This document shows, piece by piece, positions 17,062 to 38,583 of a stretch of 64,000 nt of DNA; the stretch's first letter is position 1, and the number at the start of each line of letters is the position of its first letter. The notes under the pieces were generated by a model that saw only the letters and a list, made by a program, of their open reading frames with translations, searched no databases and was not told the DNA's origin. The DNA is taken from assembly GCF_055900595.2 (NCBI RefSeq), contig NZ_CM148325.1; one strand, written 5' to 3'. A program made the position numbers and the translations under genes.

Positions 17062-17924
17062 CGCTGTGTCTCCAGCCAGTTCAGCCACTGGTCCATCCCT
17101 TCGCCGCTGGTGGCGGAAATAAGGATGATTTCAATTTCTGGATTGACTTCGCGGGCGCAGGCGATGCACTTCTCAACGTCGAAATTGAGATACGGCAGCA
17201 GGTCAACTTTGTTGAGCAGCATCAGCGAGGCGGCGGCAAACATATGTGGATATTTCAGCGGTTTGTCTTCACCTTCGGTAACGGAAAGCACCGCCACTTT
17301 GTGTTTTTCACCGAGATCGAAGCTCGCCGGACATACGAGGTTGCCAACGTTTTCGATAAACAGAATACCGTTATCGTCCAGTGGCAGGCGCGGCGCGGCG
17401 TCGGCAATCATCTGTGCGTCAAGATGGCAGCCTTTACCGGTATTCACCTGAATCGCTGGTGTGCCGGTAGCGCGAATGCGCGCGGCATCGTTCACGGTTT
17501 GCTGATCGCCTTCAATAACTGCGCACGGAACGCTGTCTTTCAGGCGTATCAAGGTTTCCGTCAGCAGGGTGGTTTTACCGGAACCAGGGCTGGAAACCAG
17601 GTTGAGTACCAACTGATTGCGGGCAGCAAAGCGCGCTCGGTTGCGTTCAGCCAGACGGTTGTTTTTGTCTAGCACGTCAATTTCGACTTCCAGCATCCGA
17701 CGCTGGCTCATGCCCGGCGCGTGAGTGCCCGCTTCGCCATGACCGTAATGCAGGTCGCCTTCTTCAGTCTGGCTGGGGGTAAATTCAGGCGCTTTAATGC
17801 CGGTGATTTTCATCTTCGGGCGTGCCGCCGGGGCAAATGGCGCGCTACGAAACGCGGAATGAGGGTTATGTTCATCACCCTCGATATACAGGTTGCCTTC
17901 ACCGCAACCGCATGTTGTACACAT
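17052..17924 (-). CDS. hypB: hydrogenase nickel incorporation GTPase HypB
   Basis: 290 aa with [10 protein letters not shown]-loop and N-terminal His-rich/CxxCGC region. Confidence 0.93.
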
Positions 17925-17927
17925 CGC

Positions 17928-18278
17928 TCACTCCTGGTCTATTTCTATCCGCCGAATCTGTAAACCGTCGTCTGCCACAATTTGTAGCATGTCGCCATGA
18001 CACTGTGGACAGCGCCGGACGCGCTGGGTCAGTAGCGTCACATACTGTTGGCATGTTTCACACCAGCATTCGGCCTCTTGTTCTTCGAGGTGCAGTTTAC
18101 AACCTTCTGCCACGCTGCCGCGGCAAACCAGATCAAAACAAAAGGCAAGAGAGCTGGTTTCGACACAAGAAAATGCGCCAATTTTGAGCCAGACCCCAGT
18201 TACGCGTTTTGCGCCGTGTTTTGCGGCCTGCTGTTCGATCAATTCCAGTGCCCGTTGGCAGAGGGTTATTTCGTGCAT
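17928..18278 (-). CDS. hypA: hydrogenase nickel insertion protein HypA
   Basis: ORF trimmed to MHEITLCQ... (116 aa); CxxC...CxxC zinc site. Confidence 0.9.
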   Translation of the reverse strand: MHEITLCQRALELIEQQAAKHGAKRVTGVWLKIGAFSCVETSSLAFCFDLVCRGSVAEGCKLHLEEQEAECWCETCQQYVTLLTQRVRRCPQCHGDMLQIVADDGLQIRRIEIDQE

Positions 18279-18307
18279 ATCGCCTCCCATTAACTATTGC
18301 CAGCTAC

Positions 18308-18326
18308 AAGCAATAATTGTGCCAGT
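18308..18326 (-). promoter_or_regulatory. sigma54 (-24/-12) promoter for the hyp operon
   Basis: Minus-strand reading CTGGCACAATTATTGCT = TGGCAC-N5-TTGCT, 5' of hypA. Confidence 0.6.
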
Positions 18327-18350
18327 GTTGATTATCCCTAAAGTGAATAA

Positions 18351-18388
18351 TGTCGATGATGTCGAAATGACACGTCGACACGGCGACG
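18351..18388. promoter_or_regulatory. FhlA upstream activating sequence in hyp-hyc divergent region
   Basis: tgtcgatgatgtcgaaatgacacgtcgacacggcgacg; repeated GTCGA/TGACA half-sites between two sigma54 promoters. Confidence 0.5.
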
Positions 18389-18437
18389 AAATTCATCTTT
18401 AGCTTAAAAATTGCTTTAATAACAATAAATTAAAAGT

Positions 18438-18453
18438 TGGCACAGAAAATGCT
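18438..18453 (+). promoter_or_regulatory. sigma54 (-24/-12) promoter for hycA
   Basis: TGGCACAGAAAATGCT: GG-N10-GC spacing, ~40 nt upstream of hycA ATG. Confidence 0.6.
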
Positions 18454-18489
18454 TAAAGCTGGCATCTCTGTTAAACGGGTAACCTGACA

Positions 18490-18951
18490 ATGACTATTTG
18501 GGAAATAAGCGAGAAAGCCGATTACATCGCACAGCGGCATCGTCGCCTACAGGACCAGTGGCATCTCTACTGCAATTCGCTGGTTCAGGGGATCACGTTA
18601 TCGAAAGCGCGCCTGCATCACGCCATGAGCTGTGCGCCAGACAAAGAACTCTGTTTCGTCCTTTTTGAACATTTTCGCATTTACGTCACCCTGGCGGATG
18701 GCTTTAACAGCCACACCATCGAGTATTACGTCGAAACGAAAGAGGGTGAAGAAAAACAGCGGATTGCGCAGGCACAATTGAGCATTGACGGAATGATAGA
18801 TGGCAAGGTCAACATCCGCGATCGCGAACAGGTACTGGAACACTATCTCGAAAAAATCGCTGGCGTTTACGACAGCTTATACACCGCCATTGAAAACAAT
18901 GTACCGGTGAATTTAAGCCAACTGGTAAAGGGACAAAGCCCGGCGGCATGA
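18490..18951 (+). CDS. hycA: formate hydrogenlyase regulatory protein HycA
   Basis: 153 aa, first gene of hyc operon. Confidence 0.92.
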   Translation: MTIWEISEKADYIAQRHRRLQDQWHLYCNSLVQGITLSKARLHHAMSCAPDKELCFVLFEHFRIYVTLADGFNSHTIEYYVETKEGEEKQRIAQAQLSIDGMIDGKVNIRDREQVLEHYLEKIAGVYDSLYTAIENNVPVNLSQLVKGQSPAA

Positions 18952-19001
18952 GCTGAGGCTTTGCCCGTTTTGCAGGCGTTACGCCTGTTTGGGGATGGGC
19001 G

Positions 19002-19056
19002 TGTCGATGAGTGTCGAAAATGACATTTCATCGGCATGTTTTCGTCAAAAATGACA
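19002..19056. promoter_or_regulatory. second FhlA UAS-like element, hycA-hycB intergenic
   Basis: tgtcgatgagtgtcgaaaatgaca nearly identical to the motif at 18351. Confidence 0.45.
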
Positions 19057-19075
19057 ATCACCTGAGGAATGCCTG

Positions 19076-19687
19076 GTGAATCGTTTTGTAATTGCTGACT
19101 CCACGCTCTGTATCGGCTGCCACACCTGTGAGGCCGCCTGTTCAGAGACGCATCGCCAGCACGGCCTGCAATCAATGCCGCGCCTGCGAGTGATGCTAAA
19201 TGAAAAAGAATCTGCGCCGCAGCTCTGTCACCACTGTGAAGATGCACCCTGTGCGGTGGTCTGCCCGGTTAACGCTATCACCCGCGTTGATGGGGCAGTG
19301 CAGCTGAATGAAAGCCTGTGCGTAAGCTGCAAACTGTGCGGCATCGCCTGCCCGTTTGGCGCAATCGAATTTTCCGGCAGCCGTCCGCTGGATATTCCGG
19401 CAAACGCCAATACCCCGAAAGCACCACCGGCACCGCCTGCTCCGGCGCGTGTCAGCACGTTGCTTGACTGGGTGCCGGGTATTCGCGCGATCGCCGTCAA
19501 ATGTGACCTCTGTAGCTTTGATGAACAAGGTCCGGCCTGCGTGCGGATGTGCCCAACCAAAGCCCTGCATCTGGTGGATAACACCGATATCGCCCGCGTC
19601 AGCAAGCGTAAGCGTGAGCTGACCTTTAACACGGACTTTGGCGATCTCACCTTGTTTCAGCAGGCTCAAAGTGGAGAGGCTAAATGA
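19076..19687 (+). CDS. hycB: formate hydrogenlyase 4Fe-4S ferredoxin subunit HycB
   Basis: 203 aa, multiple CxxCxxCxxxCP motifs. Confidence 0.94.
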   Translation: MNRFVIADSTLCIGCHTCEAACSETHRQHGLQSMPRLRVMLNEKESAPQLCHHCEDAPCAVVCPVNAITRVDGAVQLNESLCVSCKLCGIACPFGAIEFSGSRPLDIPANANTPKAPPAPPAPARVSTLLDWVPGIRAIAVKCDLCSFDEQGPACVRMCPTKALHLVDNTDIARVSKRKRELTFNTDFGDLTLFQQAQSGEAK

Positions 19688-21510
19688 GCGCAATTTCCCT
19701 GATCAATAGCGGCGTGGCGTGGTTTGTTGCTGCTGCTGTTCTGGCATTTCTCTTTTCTTTTCAAAAGGCGTTAAGCGGCTGGATTGCCGGAATTGGCGGC
19801 GCGGTGGGTAGCCTGTATACGGCAGCCGCAGGCTTCACTGTGCTGACTGGCGCGGTTGGCGTGAGCGGCGCGTTGTCGCTGGTAAGCTACAATGTGCAAA
19901 TCTCTCCGCTTAATGCGATTTGGCTGATAACCCTCGGCCTGTGCGGTCTGTTTGTCAGCCTCTACAACATTGACTGGCATCGCCATGCGCAGGTGAAGTG
20001 TAACGGCTTGCAGATCAATATGTTGATGGCTGCTGCCGTCTGTGCCGTCATTGCCAGCAATCTGGGCATGTTCGTAGTAATGGCAGAAATCATGGCCCTG
20101 TGTGCGGTGTTCCTCACCAACAACAGCAAAGAGGGCAAACTGTGGTTTGCGCTGGGGCGTCTTGGCACTTTGCTGCTGGCGATTGCTTGCTGGCTGCTGT
20201 GGCAACGTTACGGCACGCTGGATCTGCGCCTGCTGGATATGCGCATGCAACAGCTGCCGCTTGGTTCCGATATCTGGCTGCTCGGTGTGATTGGTTTTGG
20301 CCTGCTGGCCGGGATTATCCCGCTGCACGGCTGGGTGCCACAGGCTCATGCTAACGCCTCTGCGCCAGCTGCCGCGCTGTTTTCCACGGTGGTGATGAAA
20401 ATTGGCCTGCTGGGTATTTTAACCCTGTCTCTGCTGGGCGGTAATGCGCCGCTGTGGTGGGGAATTGCACTTCTGGTACTCGGCATGATCACCGCGTTCG
20501 TCGGCGGTCTGTATGCGCTGATGGAGCACAACATTCAGCGTCTGCTGGCTTACCACACTCTGGAAAATATCGGCATCATCCTGCTGGGGCTAGGCGCTGG
20601 CGTAACGGGTATCGCGCTTGAACAACCGGCGCTGATTGCCCTTGGCCTGGTCGGTGGTCTGTACCATCTGCTTAACCATAGCCTGTTCAAAAGCGTACTG
20701 TTCCTTGGTGCGGGGAGCGTCTGGTTCCGTACCGGGCATCGCGATATCGAAAAACTCGGTGGTATTGGCAAAAAAATGCCGGTTATCTCCATCGCCATGT
20801 TAGTTGGGCTGATGGCAATGGCTGCGTTGCCGCCACTGAACGGGTTTGCCGGGGAATGGGTTATCTATCAATCCTTCTTCAAACTGAGCAATAGTGGCGC
20901 GTTTGTTGCCCGTCTGCTGGGGCCGCTGCTCGCAGTGGGGCTGGCAATTACCGGTGCGCTGGCAGTGATGTGTATGGCGAAAGTTTATGGCGTTACTTTC
21001 CTTGGCGCGCCGCGTACCAAAGAAGCCGAAAACGCCACCTGTGCGCCGCTCCTGATGAGCGTAAGCGTAGTGGCACTGGCGATTTGCTGCGTGATTGGCG
21101 GTGTTGCTGCGCCGTGGCTGCTGCCGATGTTGTCTGCTGCCGTACCTCTGCCGCTGGAGCCTGCTAATACAACCGTTTCTCAACCAATGATCACGTTGCT
21201 GCTGATTGCCTGCCCGCTGCTGCCATTCATCATTATGGCGATTTGCAAAGGCGATCGTTTGCCGTCGCGTTCCCGCGGCGCGGCCTGGGTGTGCGGCTAC
21301 GACCATGAAAAATCAATGGTGATTACCGCTCACGGTTTTGCCATGCCGGTGAAACAGGCATTTGCGCCAGTGCTGAAACTGCGCAAATGGCTGAATCCGG
21401 TGTCGCTGGTACCAGGCTGGCAGTGCGAGGGGAGTGCGTTGCTGTTCCGCCGGATGGCGCTGGTTGAACTGGCGGTGCTGGTGGTGATTATTGTTTCACG
21501 AGGAGCCTGA
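19684..21510 (+). CDS. hycC: formate hydrogenlyase membrane subunit HycC
   Basis: 608 aa polytopic membrane protein. Confidence 0.94.
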   Translation: MSAISLINSGVAWFVAAAVLAFLFSFQKALSGWIAGIGGAVGSLYTAAAGFTVLTGAVGVSGALSLVSYNVQISPLNAIWLITLGLCGLFVSLYNIDWHRHAQVKCNGLQINMLMAAAVCAVIASNLGMFVVMAEIMALCAVFLTNNSKEGKLWFALGRLGTLLLAIACWLLWQRYGTLDLRLLDMRMQQLPLGSDIWLLGVIGFGLLAGIIPLHGWVPQAHANASAPAAALFSTVVMKIGLLGILTLSLLGGNAPLWWGIALLVLGMITAFVGGLYALMEHNIQRLLAYHTLENIGIILLGLGAGVTGIALEQPALIALGLVGGLYHLLNHSLFKSVLFLGAGSVWFRTGHRDIEKLGGIGKKMPVISIAMLVGLMAMAALPPLNGFAGEWVIYQSFFKLSNSGAFVARLLGPLLAVGLAITGALAVMCMAKVYGVTFLGAPRTKEAENATCAPLLMSVSVVALAICCVIGGVAAPWLLPMLSAAVPLPLEPANTTVSQPMITLLLIACPLLPFIIMAICKGDRLPSRSRGAAWVCGYDHEKSMVITAHGFAMPVKQAFAPVLKLRKWLNPVSLVPGWQCEGSALLFRRMALVELAVLVVIIVSRGA

Positions 21511-26376: not shown

Positions 26377-27150
26377 TTGAAAATCAGAACAGGGATGTGC
26401 GCTTTTTTATTTTGCTTAGTGCTTCCTGCGCAGGCTACCAGCTTTACCGAATATCTGCCAATGAGTGACAGCGAATACGCGCAAAAGCGGGCGCTGAAAC
26501 CTCTCCTGACTATGCCTTATTATACCGAGCAAACCTGGCATTTTAGAAAAGTGGGCGTTGCTGGCGTGACGCTTGAGAAGATGCCAAATGAAGAGGATTA
26601 CTGGCAATTAACTGCTAAAGACCGCGCCGGTAAATCCTGGAAGGTGCCTGTGGGTATGCTGGCAAATATGGCGGGCAAAGGGCAACTCTATCGCGCCGAT
26701 CTGGATCGTAACGGCATTCAGGATCTGGTTATCTGGTTACCAAGTGCTGGTAATGGTCTGGCTCCTTATGCACATTTAATCCTTATGACGTTCACGCGCG
26801 ATGGTCGTCCCTGTGTCTTTGAACCCTGGGGATTCTACACCGCAAGCAAAACTGGCGTAGATGATTTGCTGGATTTGCAAGGCAATGGCCACACACAATT
26901 GCTGGATATGCAGTTTAATTCTGGTTACTGGATAACCAGTCTGTATCAGGTAAAAGACGCCAAATGGCAACGTGTTCACGGCTGGTTTGGCAAGTTAAGC
27001 TATCCCGCGCTCACGCGTTTCACTTATACCCCCAACCGTAAACTCGTCCTCAAACCCATTGCCGGGCGCGACCCGCAAACGGAAGATCTGGCGTTGACCC
27101 AGCGTTGCTTGATAACAGAGGATATGCTTGATGGGGTGAATCAGCTCTGA
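26377..27150 (+). CDS. hypothetical secreted protein with FG-GAP/VCBS-like DxDxNG motifs (start may be ATG at 26395)
   Basis: 257 aa ORF; signal-peptide-like N-terminus (CAFLFCLVLPAQA); motifs DLDRNGIQDLV and DLQGNGHTQLLD; lies between hycI and a REP pair. Confidence 0.6.
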   Translation: MKIRTGMCAFLFCLVLPAQATSFTEYLPMSDSEYAQKRALKPLLTMPYYTEQTWHFRKVGVAGVTLEKMPNEEDYWQLTAKDRAGKSWKVPVGMLANMAGKGQLYRADLDRNGIQDLVIWLPSAGNGLAPYAHLILMTFTRDGRPCVFEPWGFYTASKTGVDDLLDLQGNGHTQLLDMQFNSGYWITSLYQVKDAKWQRVHGWFGKLSYPALTRFTYTPNRKLVLKPIAGRDPQTEDLALTQRCLITEDMLDGVNQL

Positions 27151-27159
27151 TGCCAAACG

Positions 27160-27250
27160 CCAGATTGCCCGATGCGCTGCGCTTATCGGGCCTACATGTC
27201 GCACGAACTATGTAGGCCGGATAAGGCGTTCACGCCGCATCCGGCACGTT
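27160..27250. repeat. BIME (pair of inverted REP elements)
   Basis: gcccgatgcgctgcgcttatcgggcctaca ... tgtaggccggataaggcgttcacgccgcatccggca. Confidence 0.8.
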
Positions 27251-27253
27251 TGC

Positions 27254-29835
<2,582 letters not shown>

Positions 29836-30094
29836 CGGATTTTATCCTGTTATCAGTAGGGTAGAGGTAGTTGTTATCAGTCGACGTGACGGGAAATTGC
29901 CGATGCTGAAACGGAATTAAGAAACCGGTTTCACAAAATCATGAATAGTTGATACTGATTAAGCAAGAGAGTTAATTGCTCATTTTTTATATTTGTGAAA
30001 CCGGTCACCTGAATATTTTTCCCGCTGCTTGCACAAGGACAATCAGCCAACGGTGCAGTACACTGCGTTGATTGCGTGTAAAGGGATGAAAATG

Positions 30095-31105
30095 ATGACG
30101 ACAATGCTGGAAGTGGCGAAGCGCGCCGGGGTTTCAAAAGCGACCGTTTCCCGCGTGCTTTCAGGTAATGGCTACGTCAGCCAGGAAACTAAAGATCGCG
30201 TGTTTCAGGCGGTGGAAGAGAGCGGCTACCGCCCAAATTTGCTGGCGCGCAATCTGTCAGCGAAGAGTACCCAGACGCTGGGGCTGGTAGTGACCAACAC
30301 GCTTTACCACGGCATTTATTTTAGTGAATTACTGTTTCATACCGCGAGAATGGCGGAAGAGAAAGGGCGTCAGCTGCTATTGGCAGATGGCAAACATAGC
30401 GCCGAAGAAGAACGCCAGGCGATTCAGTATCTACTGGATCTGCGCTGCGACGCCATTATGATTTACCCGCGCTTTTTAAGCGTGGATGAGATTGATGACA
30501 TCATTGATGCACACAATCAGCCGATAATGGTGCTCAATCGCCGCCTGCGCAAAAACAGTAGCCATAGCGTCTGGTGCGATCATAAACAGACCAGCTTTAA
30601 CGCCGTGGCAGAGTTGATAAACGCCGGACATCAGGAGATTGCTTTCCTTACCGGTTCGATGGATTCCCCCACCAGCATTGAACGCCTTGCCGGATATAAA
30701 GACGCGCTGGCGCAGCATGGTATTGCACTCAATGAAAAACTTATCGCTAACGGTAAATGGACGCCTGCCAGCGGGGCCGAAGGGGTAGAAACGTTGCTCG
30801 AACGTGGTGCTAAATTTAGCGCGTTAGTTGCCAGTAACGACGATATGGCGATAGGTGCGATGAAAGCGTTGCATGACCGTGGTGTAGCGGTGCCGGGGCA
30901 AGTATCGGTTATTGGATTTGATGATATCGCAATTGCCCCCTACACCGTTCCGGCGCTCTCCAGCGTAAAAATTCCGGTGACTGAGATGATTCAGGAAATA
31001 ATTGGGCGGCTGATATTTATGCTCGATGGTGGTGCTTACACACCGCCGAAAACCTTCAGCGGAAAACTGATCCGCCGCGACTCCCTCATTGATCTTTCGC
31101 GATAA
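30095..31105 (+). CDS. ascG: LacI-family repressor AscG
   Basis: ORF 30029..31105 trimmed to MTTMLEVAKRAGVSKATVSRVL... (336 aa); divergent from ascF. Confidence 0.92.
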   Translation: MTTMLEVAKRAGVSKATVSRVLSGNGYVSQETKDRVFQAVEESGYRPNLLARNLSAKSTQTLGLVVTNTLYHGIYFSELLFHTARMAEEKGRQLLLADGKHSAEEERQAIQYLLDLRCDAIMIYPRFLSVDEIDDIIDAHNQPIMVLNRRLRKNSSHSVWCDHKQTSFNAVAELINAGHQEIAFLTGSMDSPTSIERLAGYKDALAQHGIALNEKLIANGKWTPASGAEGVETLLERGAKFSALVASNDDMAIGAMKALHDRGVAVPGQVSVIGFDDIAIAPYTVPALSSVKIPVTEMIQEIIGRLIFMLDGGAYTPPKTFSGKLIRRDSLIDLSR

Positions 31106-31109
31106 GCAT

Positions 31110-31148
31110 TGTCATCACATGTCATCGTCACTAGTGTCGATGACATCG
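31110..31148. promoter_or_regulatory. FhlA UAS-like element upstream of hydN-hypF
   Basis: tgtcatcacatgtcatcgtcactagtgtcgatgacatcg shares TGTCGATGA/TGACA half-sites with the hyc sites. Confidence 0.45.
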
Positions 31149-31253
31149 TTTTTTCTGCATTGCAGAATTTAATTTCTTTAAATAACAATCAATTAAAAGT
31201 TGGCATGATTTGTGAATGTATCGGCGCATTAACTGTCATTGCTGGAGAATTTG

Positions 31254-31781
31254 ATGAACCGTTTCATCATTGCTGACGCGAGTAAATGTATTGGTTGTCG
31301 TACCTGTGAAGTGGCGTGCGTGGTTTCTCATCAGGAGAATCAGGACTGTGCATCGCTGACCCCGGAAACTTTTTTACCGCGAATCCATGTCATTAAAGGT
31401 GTGAACATTTCCACGGCGACAGTTTGCCGTCAGTGTGAAGATGCACCGTGCGCTAACGTCTGCCCGAATGGTGCTATCAGCCGTGATAAAGGGTTTGTTC
31501 ATGTCATGCAGGAACGTTGCATTGGTTGCAAAACCTGCGTTGTGGCTTGCCCGTATGGTGCGATGGAAGTGGTAGTGCGTCCGGTGATTCGCAACAGCGG
31601 CGCAGGGCTTAACGTACGCGCTGACAAAGCCGAAGCTAATAAATGCGACCTCTGTAACCATCGTGAAGACGGCCCGGCCTGTATGGCTGCTTGCCCGACC
31701 CATGCGCTGATTTGTGTCGATCGTAATAAACTTGAACAACTGAGCGCAGAAAAACGCCGCCGCACGGCGCTAATGTTCTAA
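31254..31781 (+). CDS. hydN: formate dehydrogenase-H-associated 4Fe-4S ferredoxin HydN
   Basis: ORF trimmed to [22 protein letters not shown]... (175 aa); HycB-like. Confidence 0.92.
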
Positions 31782-35446: not shown

Positions 35447-36882
35447 TTTGCCTCCGATGCCAGTTCGTCAAAGACGTCTTTGCCGAGAGAGCATTCCGGG
35501 CACAGGAAGTTATCCGGGACTTCACTCCACGGCGTTCCTGGCGCAACGTCCTGCATTGGCTCGCCTTTTGCCGGATCGTAAATCCACTGGCAGACACTGC
35601 ACTGCATCCGTGGGCCGAGGTCAGCCGTCGTGGTGGCACAGGTTTCTTCTTTAACCACCGTATTCACCGTGCTCTGTGGCAGCGGCGAAAGCGCCCACTG
35701 ACGGGCAATTTCACGACCGTGTTCACGGCATAACTCCAGCGCGTCCTGGTCCGGTCGCCATTTGGCTTTCAGGCTAAGCGACATTTCGAAACCTGCATCC
35801 TGCAGGCGTGTGGAAAGACGATCCACCGCACCGCCGCTCCAGCCGTGAGAGCCGAAAGCACTGGCGCGTTTGTTACGGAAGCGTAATCCGGTCATCTCCT
35901 CCACCAGCCCGGCGATTTTCGGCATCATCACGTTATTCATCGTCGACGTGCCGACCAGCACGCCTTTTGAGCGGAAGACATTGGTCAGGATTTCGTTTTT
36001 ATCGCTTCGGGCAACGTTGAAAATTTTCACCGCCACGCGTGGGTCGGTTTCCGCAATACCCTGGGCGATAGCATCGGCCATCATGCGGGTATTATTCGAC
36101 ATGGTGTCGTAGAAAATGGTGATTCTGTCTTCCTGATAATCCGCCGCCCATTTCAGGTACAGCTCGACAATTTGCGTCGGGTTATCGCGCCATACCACGC
36201 CGTGAGAGGTCGCTATCATATCGACCGGCAAGTTAAAGCCCAGGATCTCGGTGATTTTCGGCGTTACCAGGCGGCTGAACGGTGTCAGGATATTGGCGTA
36301 GTAACGCTGACACTGCTCGAAAAGCTCGGTCTGATCCACTTCATCGTTGAAGAGATGCTCGTCGCAGTAGTGCTGACCGAAAGCATCGTTACTGAACAGC
36401 ACCGCGTCGCCCGTCAGGTAAGTCATCATGCTGTCCGGCCAGTGCAGCATTGGCGTTTCGACAAAAATGAGTTGTTTGCCGTTGCCGATATCCAGCGTGT
36501 CGCCGGTTTTCACCACGTTGAAATTCCACTCCGGATGATGGTGATGACCATTTATTGAGTCGATAGCGTTGGCAGTACAATAGATCGGCGTATCGGGAAT
36601 TTGCGCCATCAGTTCGGTCAGCGCCCCGGCGTGGTCCTCTTCAGCATGGTTAATCACGATGTAATCGATATCCGCCAGATCGATTTCATTACGCAGGTTC
36701 TGCACAAATTCGCGGCTGAATTTATGGTCGACGGTGTCGATCAGTACGTTTTTTTCTTCGCGGATGAGGTAGCTGTTGTAACTGCTGCCGCGCAGCGTTT
36801 TATATTCTGTACCGTGAAAATCACGCACTTCCCAGTCACGTTGACCAACCCAATGAATGTTATTTTTCACCACAATAGACAT
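35443..36882 (-). CDS. norV: anaerobic nitric oxide reductase flavorubredoxin NorV
   Basis: 479 aa; metallo-beta-lactamase + flavodoxin + C-terminal rubredoxin CxxC...CxxC. Confidence 0.94.
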
Positions 36883-36928: not shown

Positions 36929-36946
36929 TTGCAGATTGCGTGCCAG
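36929..36946 (-). promoter_or_regulatory. sigma54 promoter of norVW
   Basis: Minus-strand TGGCACGCAATCTGCAA (TGGCAC-N5-CTGCA), ~45 nt upstream of norV start. Confidence 0.7.
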
Positions 36947-37000: not shown

Positions 37001-37056
37001 GTCAAAATGACTATCAATAAAATGGTCGATATGACAATATCTATAGTCAAATTGAC
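37001..37056. promoter_or_regulatory. three NorR binding sites (GT-N7-AC)
   Basis: GTCAAAATGAC (37001-37011), GTCGATATGAC (37025-37035), GTCAAATTGAC (37046-37056) in norR-norV divergent region. Confidence 0.8.
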
Positions 37057-37068
37057 AGTGAGGCAAAG

Positions 37069-38583
37069 ATGAGTTTTTCCGTTGATGTGCTGGCGAATAT
37101 CGCCATCGAATTGCAGCGTGGGATTGGTCATCAGGATCGTTTTCAGCGCCTGATCACCACGCTGCGTCAGGTGCTGGAGTGCGATGCGTCTGCGTTGCTA
37201 CGTTACGACTCGCGGCAGTTTATTCCGCTTGCCATCGACGGGCTGGCGAAGGATGTACTCGGTAGACGCTTTGCGCTGGAAGGTCATCCACGGCTGGAAG
37301 CGATTGCCCGCGCCGGGGACGTGGTGCGTTTTCCCGCAGACAGCGAATTGCCCGATCCTTATGACGGTTTGATTCCCGGGCAGGAGAGTCTGAAGGTTCA
37401 CGCCTGCGTTGGTCTGCCGTTATTTGCCGGACAAAACCTGATCGGTGCATTGACACTCGACGGGATGCAGCCCGATCAGTTCGATGTTTTCAGCGACGAA
37501 GAGTTACGGCTGATTGCCGCGCTGGCGGCGGGAGCGTTAAGCAATGCGTTGCTGATTGAACAGCTGGAAAGTCAGAATATGCTGCCGGGCGATGCCGCGC
37601 CGTTTGAAGCGCTGAAAGAGACGCAGATGATCGGCCTGTCGCCAGGCATGACGCAATTGAAAAAAGAGATTGAGATTGTGGCGGCGTCCGATCTCAACGT
37701 CCTAATCAGTGGTGAGACGGGAACGGGTAAGGAGCTGGTGGCGAAAGCGATTCATGAAGCCTCGCCACGGGCGGTGAATCCGTTAGTCTATCTCAACTGT
37801 GCCGCACTGCCGGAAAGTGTGGCGGAAAGTGAGTTGTTTGGGCACGTGAAAGGGGCGTTTACTGGCGCTATCAGTAACCGCAGTGGGAAGTTTGAAATGG
37901 CGGATAACGGCACGCTGTTTCTGGATGAGATCGGCGAGTTGTCGTTGGCATTGCAGGCCAAGCTGCTGCGGGTGTTGCAGTATGGCGATATTCAGCGCGT
38001 TGGCGATGACCGCAGTTTGCGGGTCGATGTGCGCGTGCTGGCGGCGACTAACCGCGACTTGCGCGAAGAGGTGCTGGCAGGGCGATTTCGTGCTGACTTG
38101 TTTCATCGCCTGAGTGTGTTTCCGCTTTCGGTGCCGCCGCTGCGTGAGCGGGGTGATGACGTCATTCTGCTGGCGGGGTATTACTGCGAACAGTGCCGCC
38201 TGCGGTTGGGGCTTTCCCGCGTGGTGTTAAGTTCCGGGGCGCGGAATTTATTGCAACATTATAGTTTCCCGGGGAACGTGCGCGAACTGGAACATGCTAT
38301 TCATCGGGCGGTGGTGCTGGCGAGAGCGACCCGCAGCGGCGATGAAGTGATTCTCGAGGCGCAACATTTTGCTTTTCCTGAGGTGACGTTGCCGCCGCCA
38401 GAAGCGGCGGCGGTGCCTATTGTTAAGCAAAACCTGCGTGAAGCGACAGAAGCGTTCCAGCGTGAAACTATTCGCCAGGCGCTGGCACAAAATCATCACA
38501 ACTGGGCTGCCAGCGCACGGATGCTGGAAACCGACGTCGCCAACCTGCATCGGCTGGCGAAACGTCTGGGGCTGAAGGATTAA
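37069..38583 (+). CDS. norR: nitric oxide-responsive sigma54 activator NorR
   Basis: 504 aa; GAF + AAA+ ([14 protein letters not shown]) + HTH. Confidence 0.94.

Follow-up and report, generated by a model that had tools for sequence, protein, structure and literature searches.

The spacer between hypA and hycA is, with a probability that we put at about 0.93, the formate-responsive control region of the formate hydrogenlyase genes of Escherichia coli: it carries two divergent sigma-54 promoters, a FhlA block between them and an IHF site on the hyc side, and it works together with a remote block in the hycA-hycB spacer. This sigma-54/FhlA control region is real and already known, and the original prediction had read it correctly: its picture of divergent sigma-54 promoters with a FhlA-type UAS in between is borne out by motif statistics, by identity to K-12, by published ChIP-seq and by conservation across 80 species. 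The motifs, the statistics, the K-12 identity and the conservation were computed here. Sigma-54 occupancy and the dependence on FhlA and formate are taken from the literature, and the IHF bend and the pairing of UAS and promoter are what we infer.

All coordinates refer to the window, that is, the whole stretch of 64 kb of DNA that was analysed, which comes from the E. coli chromosome. The features discussed below are the following.

17928 to 18278, minus strand: hypA coding sequence, first gene of the hyp operon (translation MHEITLCQRAL..., and annotation of an identical E. coli record).
18309 to 18324, minus strand: PhypA, sigma-54 promoter of the hypABCDE-fhlA operon, TGGCACAATTATTGCT, read as TGGCAC-AATTA-TTGCT; exact pattern match.
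18351 to 18378, no strand given: conserved core of the central UAS, TGTCGATGATGTCGAAATGACACGTCGA (FhlA-matrix match, half-site cluster, conservation).
18373 to 18393, no strand given: a second sub-site within the central UAS, weaker than the first, consisting of the dyad CGTCG-ACACGG-CGACG and, after it, AAATT.
18420 to 18432, plus strand: IHF-like core TAACAATAAATTA, which differs from WATCAANNNNTTR at one position and lies 5 bp ahead of the -24 element of hyc.
18438 to 18453, plus strand: PhycA, sigma-54 promoter of the hycABCDEFGHI operon, TGGCACAGAAAATGCT, read as TGGCAC-AGAAA-ATGCT; exact pattern match.
18490 to 18951, plus strand: hycA coding sequence, which encodes the FhlA antagonist and opens the hyc operon (ORF list, translation, annotation).
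19001 to 19056, no strand given: second FhlA-type UAS, GTGTCGATGAGTGTCGAAAATGACA ... TTTTCGTCAAAAATGACA (FhlA-matrix matches, direct repeat, conservation).
31110 to 31216, plus strand: hydN-hypF layout, with a UAS-like block at 31110-31148, the IHF-like core TAACAATCAATTA at 31183-31195 and the sigma-54 motif TGGCATGATTTGTGAA at 31201-31216.

The region is found in 5425 of the 5426 complete E. coli genomes, and the 1.1 kb around the spacer is 100% identical to several of them; in the identical records the genes annotated over this stretch are hypB, hypA and hycA. The hypA ATG is located at 18278 on the minus strand, with the RBS GGAGGC (the reverse complement of 18282-18287), and the hycA ATG at 18490 on the plus strand. 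The two genes are thus divergent, with a spacer of 211 bp, and these two start codons confirm the gene context that had been proposed, hypA on the minus and hycA on the plus strand.

The characterisation of the hyp-hyc region in K-12 dates back over 25 years, and what we have here is the same locus. Its confirmation serves mainly to validate the motif reading of the original prediction, whose label of known biology was right. The hycA and hypA promoters described in K-12 (Lutz et al. 1990; Schlensog et al. 1994; Hopper et al. 1994; Leonhartsberger et al. 2000) are the promoters of this very locus. Compared with K-12 MG1655, the spacer has the same length (211 bp in both) and is 98% identical, with six substitutions (18340-18342, 18412-18413 and 18445), none of which falls in the -24/-12 bases, the central block or the IHF-like core. 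Over the 1.1-kb query (17900-19000) an identity of at least 99% is seen in just 13 of the 5426 E. coli records, and the others are at 95-99%, indicating that the window holds a minor allele of a known region, from a lineage that is in the minority at the hyp-hyc locus. The spacer is thus a minor allele of the very control region of hyc and hyp known from K-12, neither a new member nor a variant of anything. Further downstream, the genes that follow hycI are shifted by 309 bp against their positions in NZ_CP098223, a genome with 100% identity across the hyp-hyc query; this offset implies an indel somewhere between hycI and hydN (about 26400 to 31250).

Both sigma-54 motifs that had been quoted are found exactly as described: the minus-strand one occupies 18309-18324 (the start originally noted, 18308, is one base outside) and the plus-strand one 18438-18453. 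The pattern TGGCAC-N5-WTGCT (TGGCACNNNNNWTGCT) has two matches in the 64 kb, which are these two promoters, against 0.07 expected, and none of 100 shuffles gave two. Further, when every position of the 64-kb window is scored with the RpoN matrix (PMC7658346, Table 2), PhypA ranks first (19.0 bits), the norV promoter second and PhycA third (15.6 bits). Both promoters follow the class pattern TGGCAC-N5-TTGCW and have GG and GC exactly ten bases apart. PhycA carries an A for T at the first -12 position, which is consistent with its lower matrix score.

The predicted start of PhypA, 18298, is 20 nt before the hypA ATG and that of PhycA, 18464, is 26 nt before the hycA ATG. In K-12, sigma-54 ChIP-seq (Bonocora et al. 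2015, PMC4591121) has a peak at hypA (OS28, CTGGCACAATTATTGCT, FAT 201) and one at hycA (OS27, TTGGCACAAAAAATGCT, FAT 91); both belong to EcoCyc-confirmed promoters, with predicted starts 20 nt and 26 nt before the gene, respectively. The PhypA motif is identical to OS28, and PhycA differs from OS27 at one spacer base. A mismatch between mapped starts and the -24/-12 elements would have spoken against the original prediction; as far as secondary sources show (the EcoCyc-confirmed flags in PMC4591121), there is no such mismatch.

Other experiments agree with this occupancy. The hypA-hycA spacer is also picked up by genomic SELEX with RpoN (Shimada et al. 2021, PMC8743547). In Salmonella, ChIP-chip places sigma-54 at both the hyc and the hyp promoter, and expression of a promiscuous bEBP raises hyc 26-fold, hyp 5.6-fold and hydN 13-fold (PMC3844500); the same paper credits the divergent NtrA-dependent promoters to Lutz et al. 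1990.

A HycA-based scan with one genome per species gave 80 loci, which with the window make 81 sequences; the genera covered are Escherichia, Salmonella, Citrobacter, Enterobacter, Klebsiella, Raoultella, Kluyvera, Kosakonia, Lelliottia, Pseudescherichia and others. In all 80 loci hypA and hycA are divergent, and the spacer is 188-223 bp long. TGGCAY-N5-TTGCW faces hypA in 81 of 81 sequences, with 13 different N5 spacers, and TGGCAY-N5-NTGCT faces hycA in equally many, with 10 different N5 spacers. From the end of the motif to the ATG there are 28-34 bp for hypA (42 bp in one sequence) and 34-37 bp for hycA, again in 81 of 81. That the promoters are kept at near-fixed distances while the N5 spacers vary is the pattern expected from selection on the sigma-54 contacts.

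A few observations on the promoters and their surroundings can be added. Together the two promoters make up an imperfect inverted repeat of 27 nt (18298-18324 and 18438-18464, 21 of 27 positions matching), which continues beyond the -12 element as far as a second CTGGCA at either predicted start (GCTTGTAGCTGGCA and GCTTAAAGCTGGCA); this extension is not shared outside E. coli, and E. albertii and Salmonella differ. The 5' leader of hycA (18467-18486, TCTCTGTTAAACGGGTAACCTGAC) is strongly kept across genera (..TCTC..TTAACCGGGTAACC..), beyond what an RBS needs, and has no Rfam match.

Sigma-54-like motifs are also present within genes. Inside hycA, TGGCATCTCTACTGCA at 18559-18574 on the plus strand, about 95 bp downstream of the hyc start, scores 11.9 bits with the RpoN matrix; it has TGGCATCTCT in common with 18460-18469, and in 53 of 80 species its score is 10 bits or more. 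As it overlaps the conserved codons W-H-L-Y-C, its conservation may reflect a constraint on the protein. A ChIP-seq peak at this motif would be inseparable from that of the hycA promoter. Within hycC, TGGCGCGTTTGTTGCC at 20895-20910 on the plus strand matches IS31, a sigma-54 ChIP-seq site that was reported inside the hycC gene of K-12.

Between the two promoters the original prediction had placed a block rich in GTCGA/TGACA half-sites. The block it quoted, tgtcgatgatgtcgaaatgacacgtcgacacggcgacg, is found at 18351-18388, in the densest half-site cluster of the window: GTCGA, TCGAC, TGACA and TGTCA together occur five times in 45 bp (18348-18392). This density should be read against first-order Markov simulations of 64-kb sequences, in which five was reached in 6 of 200 runs. 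The central block is 44 bp from the -24 element of hyp and 69 bp from that of hyc. Relative to the predicted starts, the core is at -113 to -86 for hyc and at -53 to -80 for hyp, and the whole block (18351-18393) is at -71 to -113 and -53 to -95, respectively. This position fits that of a FhlA UAS, which is expected about 70-150 bp upstream of a formate-regulon sigma-54 promoter.

With the FhlA matrix, two sites of at least 16 bits are found in the window against 0.07 expected, one at 18351-18364 in the central block (16.0 bits) and one at 19012-19025 in the hycA-hycB spacer (17.5 bits); these window scores are partly circular, as the matrix (PMC7658346) comes from 13 E. coli sites, very probably with these sequences among them. 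The site at 18351-18364 is the only strong match in the central block and the second-best in the window. In spacers from outside Escherichia the median best score is 11.0 bits, compared with 6.0 for random 210-mers, and this difference mostly removes the circularity.

In the central block, the match to the published 16-bp FhlA consensus CATTTCGTACGAAATG (Leonhartsberger 2000, quoted in PMC4987338) is limited to CGAAAT half-sites, one at 18363 and one at 18387. As a model of the site the full 16-bp palindrome was rejected, since it fails to fit and only its half-sites match. The second CGAAAT half-site, 24 bp after the first, is provided by the weaker sub-site at 18373-18393.

In the alignment of the 81 sequences, the best-conserved stretch of the spacer apart from the promoters is ATGWCGA-N3/4-TGWCGAAATGACAYGTC. 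The UAS core is kept in about 20 genera while the flanking spacer sequence diverges. Conservation across genera is confined to the left two-thirds of the quoted block, TGTCGATGATGTCGAAATGACACGTCG, and the right part (cacggcgacg) is restricted to certain lineages. Escherichia, Salmonella and part of Citrobacter retain this right part, CACGGCGACGAAATT; Enterobacter and Kluyvera have other TGWCR pairs in its place, and the C. freundii group and Pseudescherichia have a deletion here. The core is thus a discrete conserved block, and related blocks are found at other FhlA targets (hycA-hycB and hydN).

The second FhlA-type block, in the hycA-hycB spacer, follows the hyc start at a distance of 537-592 bp and, seen from the hyp start, lies 703-758 bp upstream. 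This block contains the best FhlA-matrix match of the window, the one at 19012-19025, as well as another at 19043-19056 (12.2 bits), and a 13-nt direct repeat, 31 bp apart. In 78 distinct sequences both GTGTCGA-N3-GTGTCGAAA(A)TGACA and TTTCGTCAAAAATGAC are kept, and the latter is nearly invariant. The block ends 20 bp before hycB, which leaves no room for a promoter of its own, so that it must act at a distance.

On the hyc side, the IHF-like core is preceded by an A/T-rich tract (18395-18419), between the UAS and PhycA. The core has zero or one mismatch in 57 of the 81 sequences, and its 5-bp gap to the TGGCA of hyc is fixed in 67 of them. When the hyp side of the same 81 sequences was scanned for a comparable site, the best match had two to four mismatches. 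The arrangement expected of an IHF-assisted sigma-54 promoter, WATCAANNNNTTR with an A/T-rich 5' flank, is therefore present on the hyc side only. A near-identical IHF-like core is found at hydN.

Other kinds of signal were also looked for. An Rfam scan of 17800-19300 gave only a sub-threshold match to isrA (E 0.89), which we take as noise, and scans for sigma-70 promoters and terminators gave counts at chance level. The lone 'terminator' is the CGTCG-N6-CGACG dyad of the UAS and was rejected, as this DNA is untranscribed. A scan of hypA and the spacer for FNR sites gave nothing at up to two mismatches, save the A/T-rich IHF stretch.

It had also been noted that the motif recurs elsewhere in the window, and this holds; presumably the hycA-hycB block (19001-19056) and the hydN layout (31110-31216) were meant. 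The IHF-like site on the hyc side, the UAS in the hycA-hycB spacer and the order of UAS, IHF-like core and sigma-54 motif at hydN were not listed there.

The hydN gene (ATG at 31254) is a known FhlA target. Its UAS-like block is the second-densest half-site cluster in the window, and its sigma-54 motif equals the K-12 ChIP-seq site OS26. The hydN-hypF region resembles hyc in having a TGWCR block, an IHF-like core 5 bp before TGGCA and a sigma-54 motif. Over the IHF/-24 stretch (18395-18443 and 31170-31206) the two promoters are identical at 33 of 35 positions, and their flanks are unrelated. This likeness could come from common descent, hydN being a paralogue of hycB, or from a strong shared constraint. 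However, hydN-hypF has a single promoter instead of a divergent pair, the distance from the UAS core to the -24 element is 59 bp compared with 69 bp at hyc, the -12 element is weaker (GTGAA), and the spacings of the half-sites do not fit the rigid 14-bp FhlA matrix.

Besides the hydN promoter, the closest analogues are two sigma-54 systems with other activators. For the spacer between zraP and zraSR a shared central enhancer has been proposed. As at hyp-hyc, two divergent sigma-54 promoters surround an enhancer in a short spacer (K-12 ChIP-seq peaks OS38 and OS39), but the activator is ZraR and the motif centres are 154 bp apart, compared with 128 bp here. At norV, the divergent norR gene is not known to have a sigma-54 promoter. 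The norV gene (ATG at 36882; norR starts at 37069) has the sigma-54 motif TGGCACGCAATCTGCA at 36930-36945 on the minus strand, the same as the K-12 ChIP-seq site OS25, and three GTCA-N-TGAC enhancer sites of the NorR type (GT-N7-AC) at about 37013-37057. An A/T-rich AACAATTAGATAAAAAAC stretch just before its TGGCA resembles the placement of IHF at hyc and hydN. The activator and the signal differ from hyp-hyc, being NorR and nitric oxide.

In the mechanism with the best support, which is that of the textbooks, RNA polymerase with sigma-54 would form closed complexes on both divergent -24/-12 promoters, and the enhancer-binding protein FhlA would occupy the TGWCR-rich block at 18351-18393. Formate-bound FhlA would hydrolyse ATP, by which the promoter complex is opened. 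On the hyc side, IHF at 18420-18432 probably bends the A/T-rich stretch, allowing FhlA at -71 to -113 to reach PhycA. The hycA-hycB block (19001-19056) would be part of the same FhlA system and act remotely.

Within this mechanism, PhypA may be activated in more than one way. One is a division of labour, in which the central block together with IHF activates PhycA only, and PhypA is driven from the hycA-hycB block, about 700-760 bp upstream; we would give this a little less than an even chance. In its favour, the best FhlA-matrix match of the window is in the hycA-hycB spacer, the block there is kept in all species examined and lacks space for its own promoter, and the IHF-like site is confined to the hyc side. 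Further, Schlensog and co-workers and Hopper and co-workers, both in 1994, reportedly assigned the hycA-hycB site to hyp. However, the distance from the core to the -24 element of hyp takes only the values 42-44 or 53-55 bp (75 species), which suggests a face-of-helix constraint towards hyp as well, and a position of -53 to -95 from the hyp start would be workable for an enhancer-binding protein.

The distances within the spacer are restricted in other ways too. The gap between the two promoters is 113-115, 101-102 or 91 bp only, with a single exception of 111 bp, and the distance from the core to the -24 element of hyc is 47, 58-61 or 69-70 bp only. Both core-to-promoter distances thus shift between species in steps of about 10-11 bp. 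Such steps on both sides suggest, from sequence comparison, that there may be a rotational constraint towards both promoters.

This is what would be expected if the central block were a shared, bidirectional enhancer, where one FhlA oligomer activates both promoters and the hycA-hycB block merely boosts or stabilises the assembly of that oligomer. We regard this as a serious but somewhat doubtful possibility. The block is indeed placed between the two -24 elements, and the gap between the promoters is quantised, with both UAS-promoter distances following the same steps. On the other hand, the steps could be gains or losses of a TGWCR repeat unit of about 10 bp, or of the second sub-site, and they represent few independent indel events, about five to seven. 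In addition, the hyp side is without a bend site, and the literature reportedly pairs hyp with the other UAS. As the steps may be changes in repeat units and come from so few independent events, remote and shared activation of PhypA are left near parity.

A stricter arrangement can also be imagined, where throughout the Enterobacteriaceae the rotational register of the FhlA core and the two promoters is fixed and both promoters are served by a single FhlA assembly on one face of the DNA, with IHF steering it to hyc and the hycA-hycB block as a helper. We consider this unlikely. If true, it would depart from the textbook arrangement of one UAS per operon.

Finally, that the GTCGA/TGACA cluster is due to chance, or is the site of another regulator (ModE, HyfR or a NorR-like GT-N7-AC binder), is highly improbable: the half-site count is only moderately unusual in the simulations and also catches the NorR sites at 37013-37057, but the core is kept in about 20 genera where its flanks are not, it recurs at two other positions of the FhlA regulon, and its FhlA-matrix score holds in species outside the training sites of the matrix. 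Our preferred reading remains that of a formate-responsive control region with a FhlA block between the promoters.

Only two things in this analysis are mildly new, namely the pattern of spacings between species and the finding that the IHF-like site is strictly one-sided. The spacing pattern offers a cheap and testable handle on which enhancer serves the hyp promoter. As for the region itself, it governs the way in which hydrogen production and the maturation of hydrogenase are turned on in E. coli and its relatives as formate accumulates.
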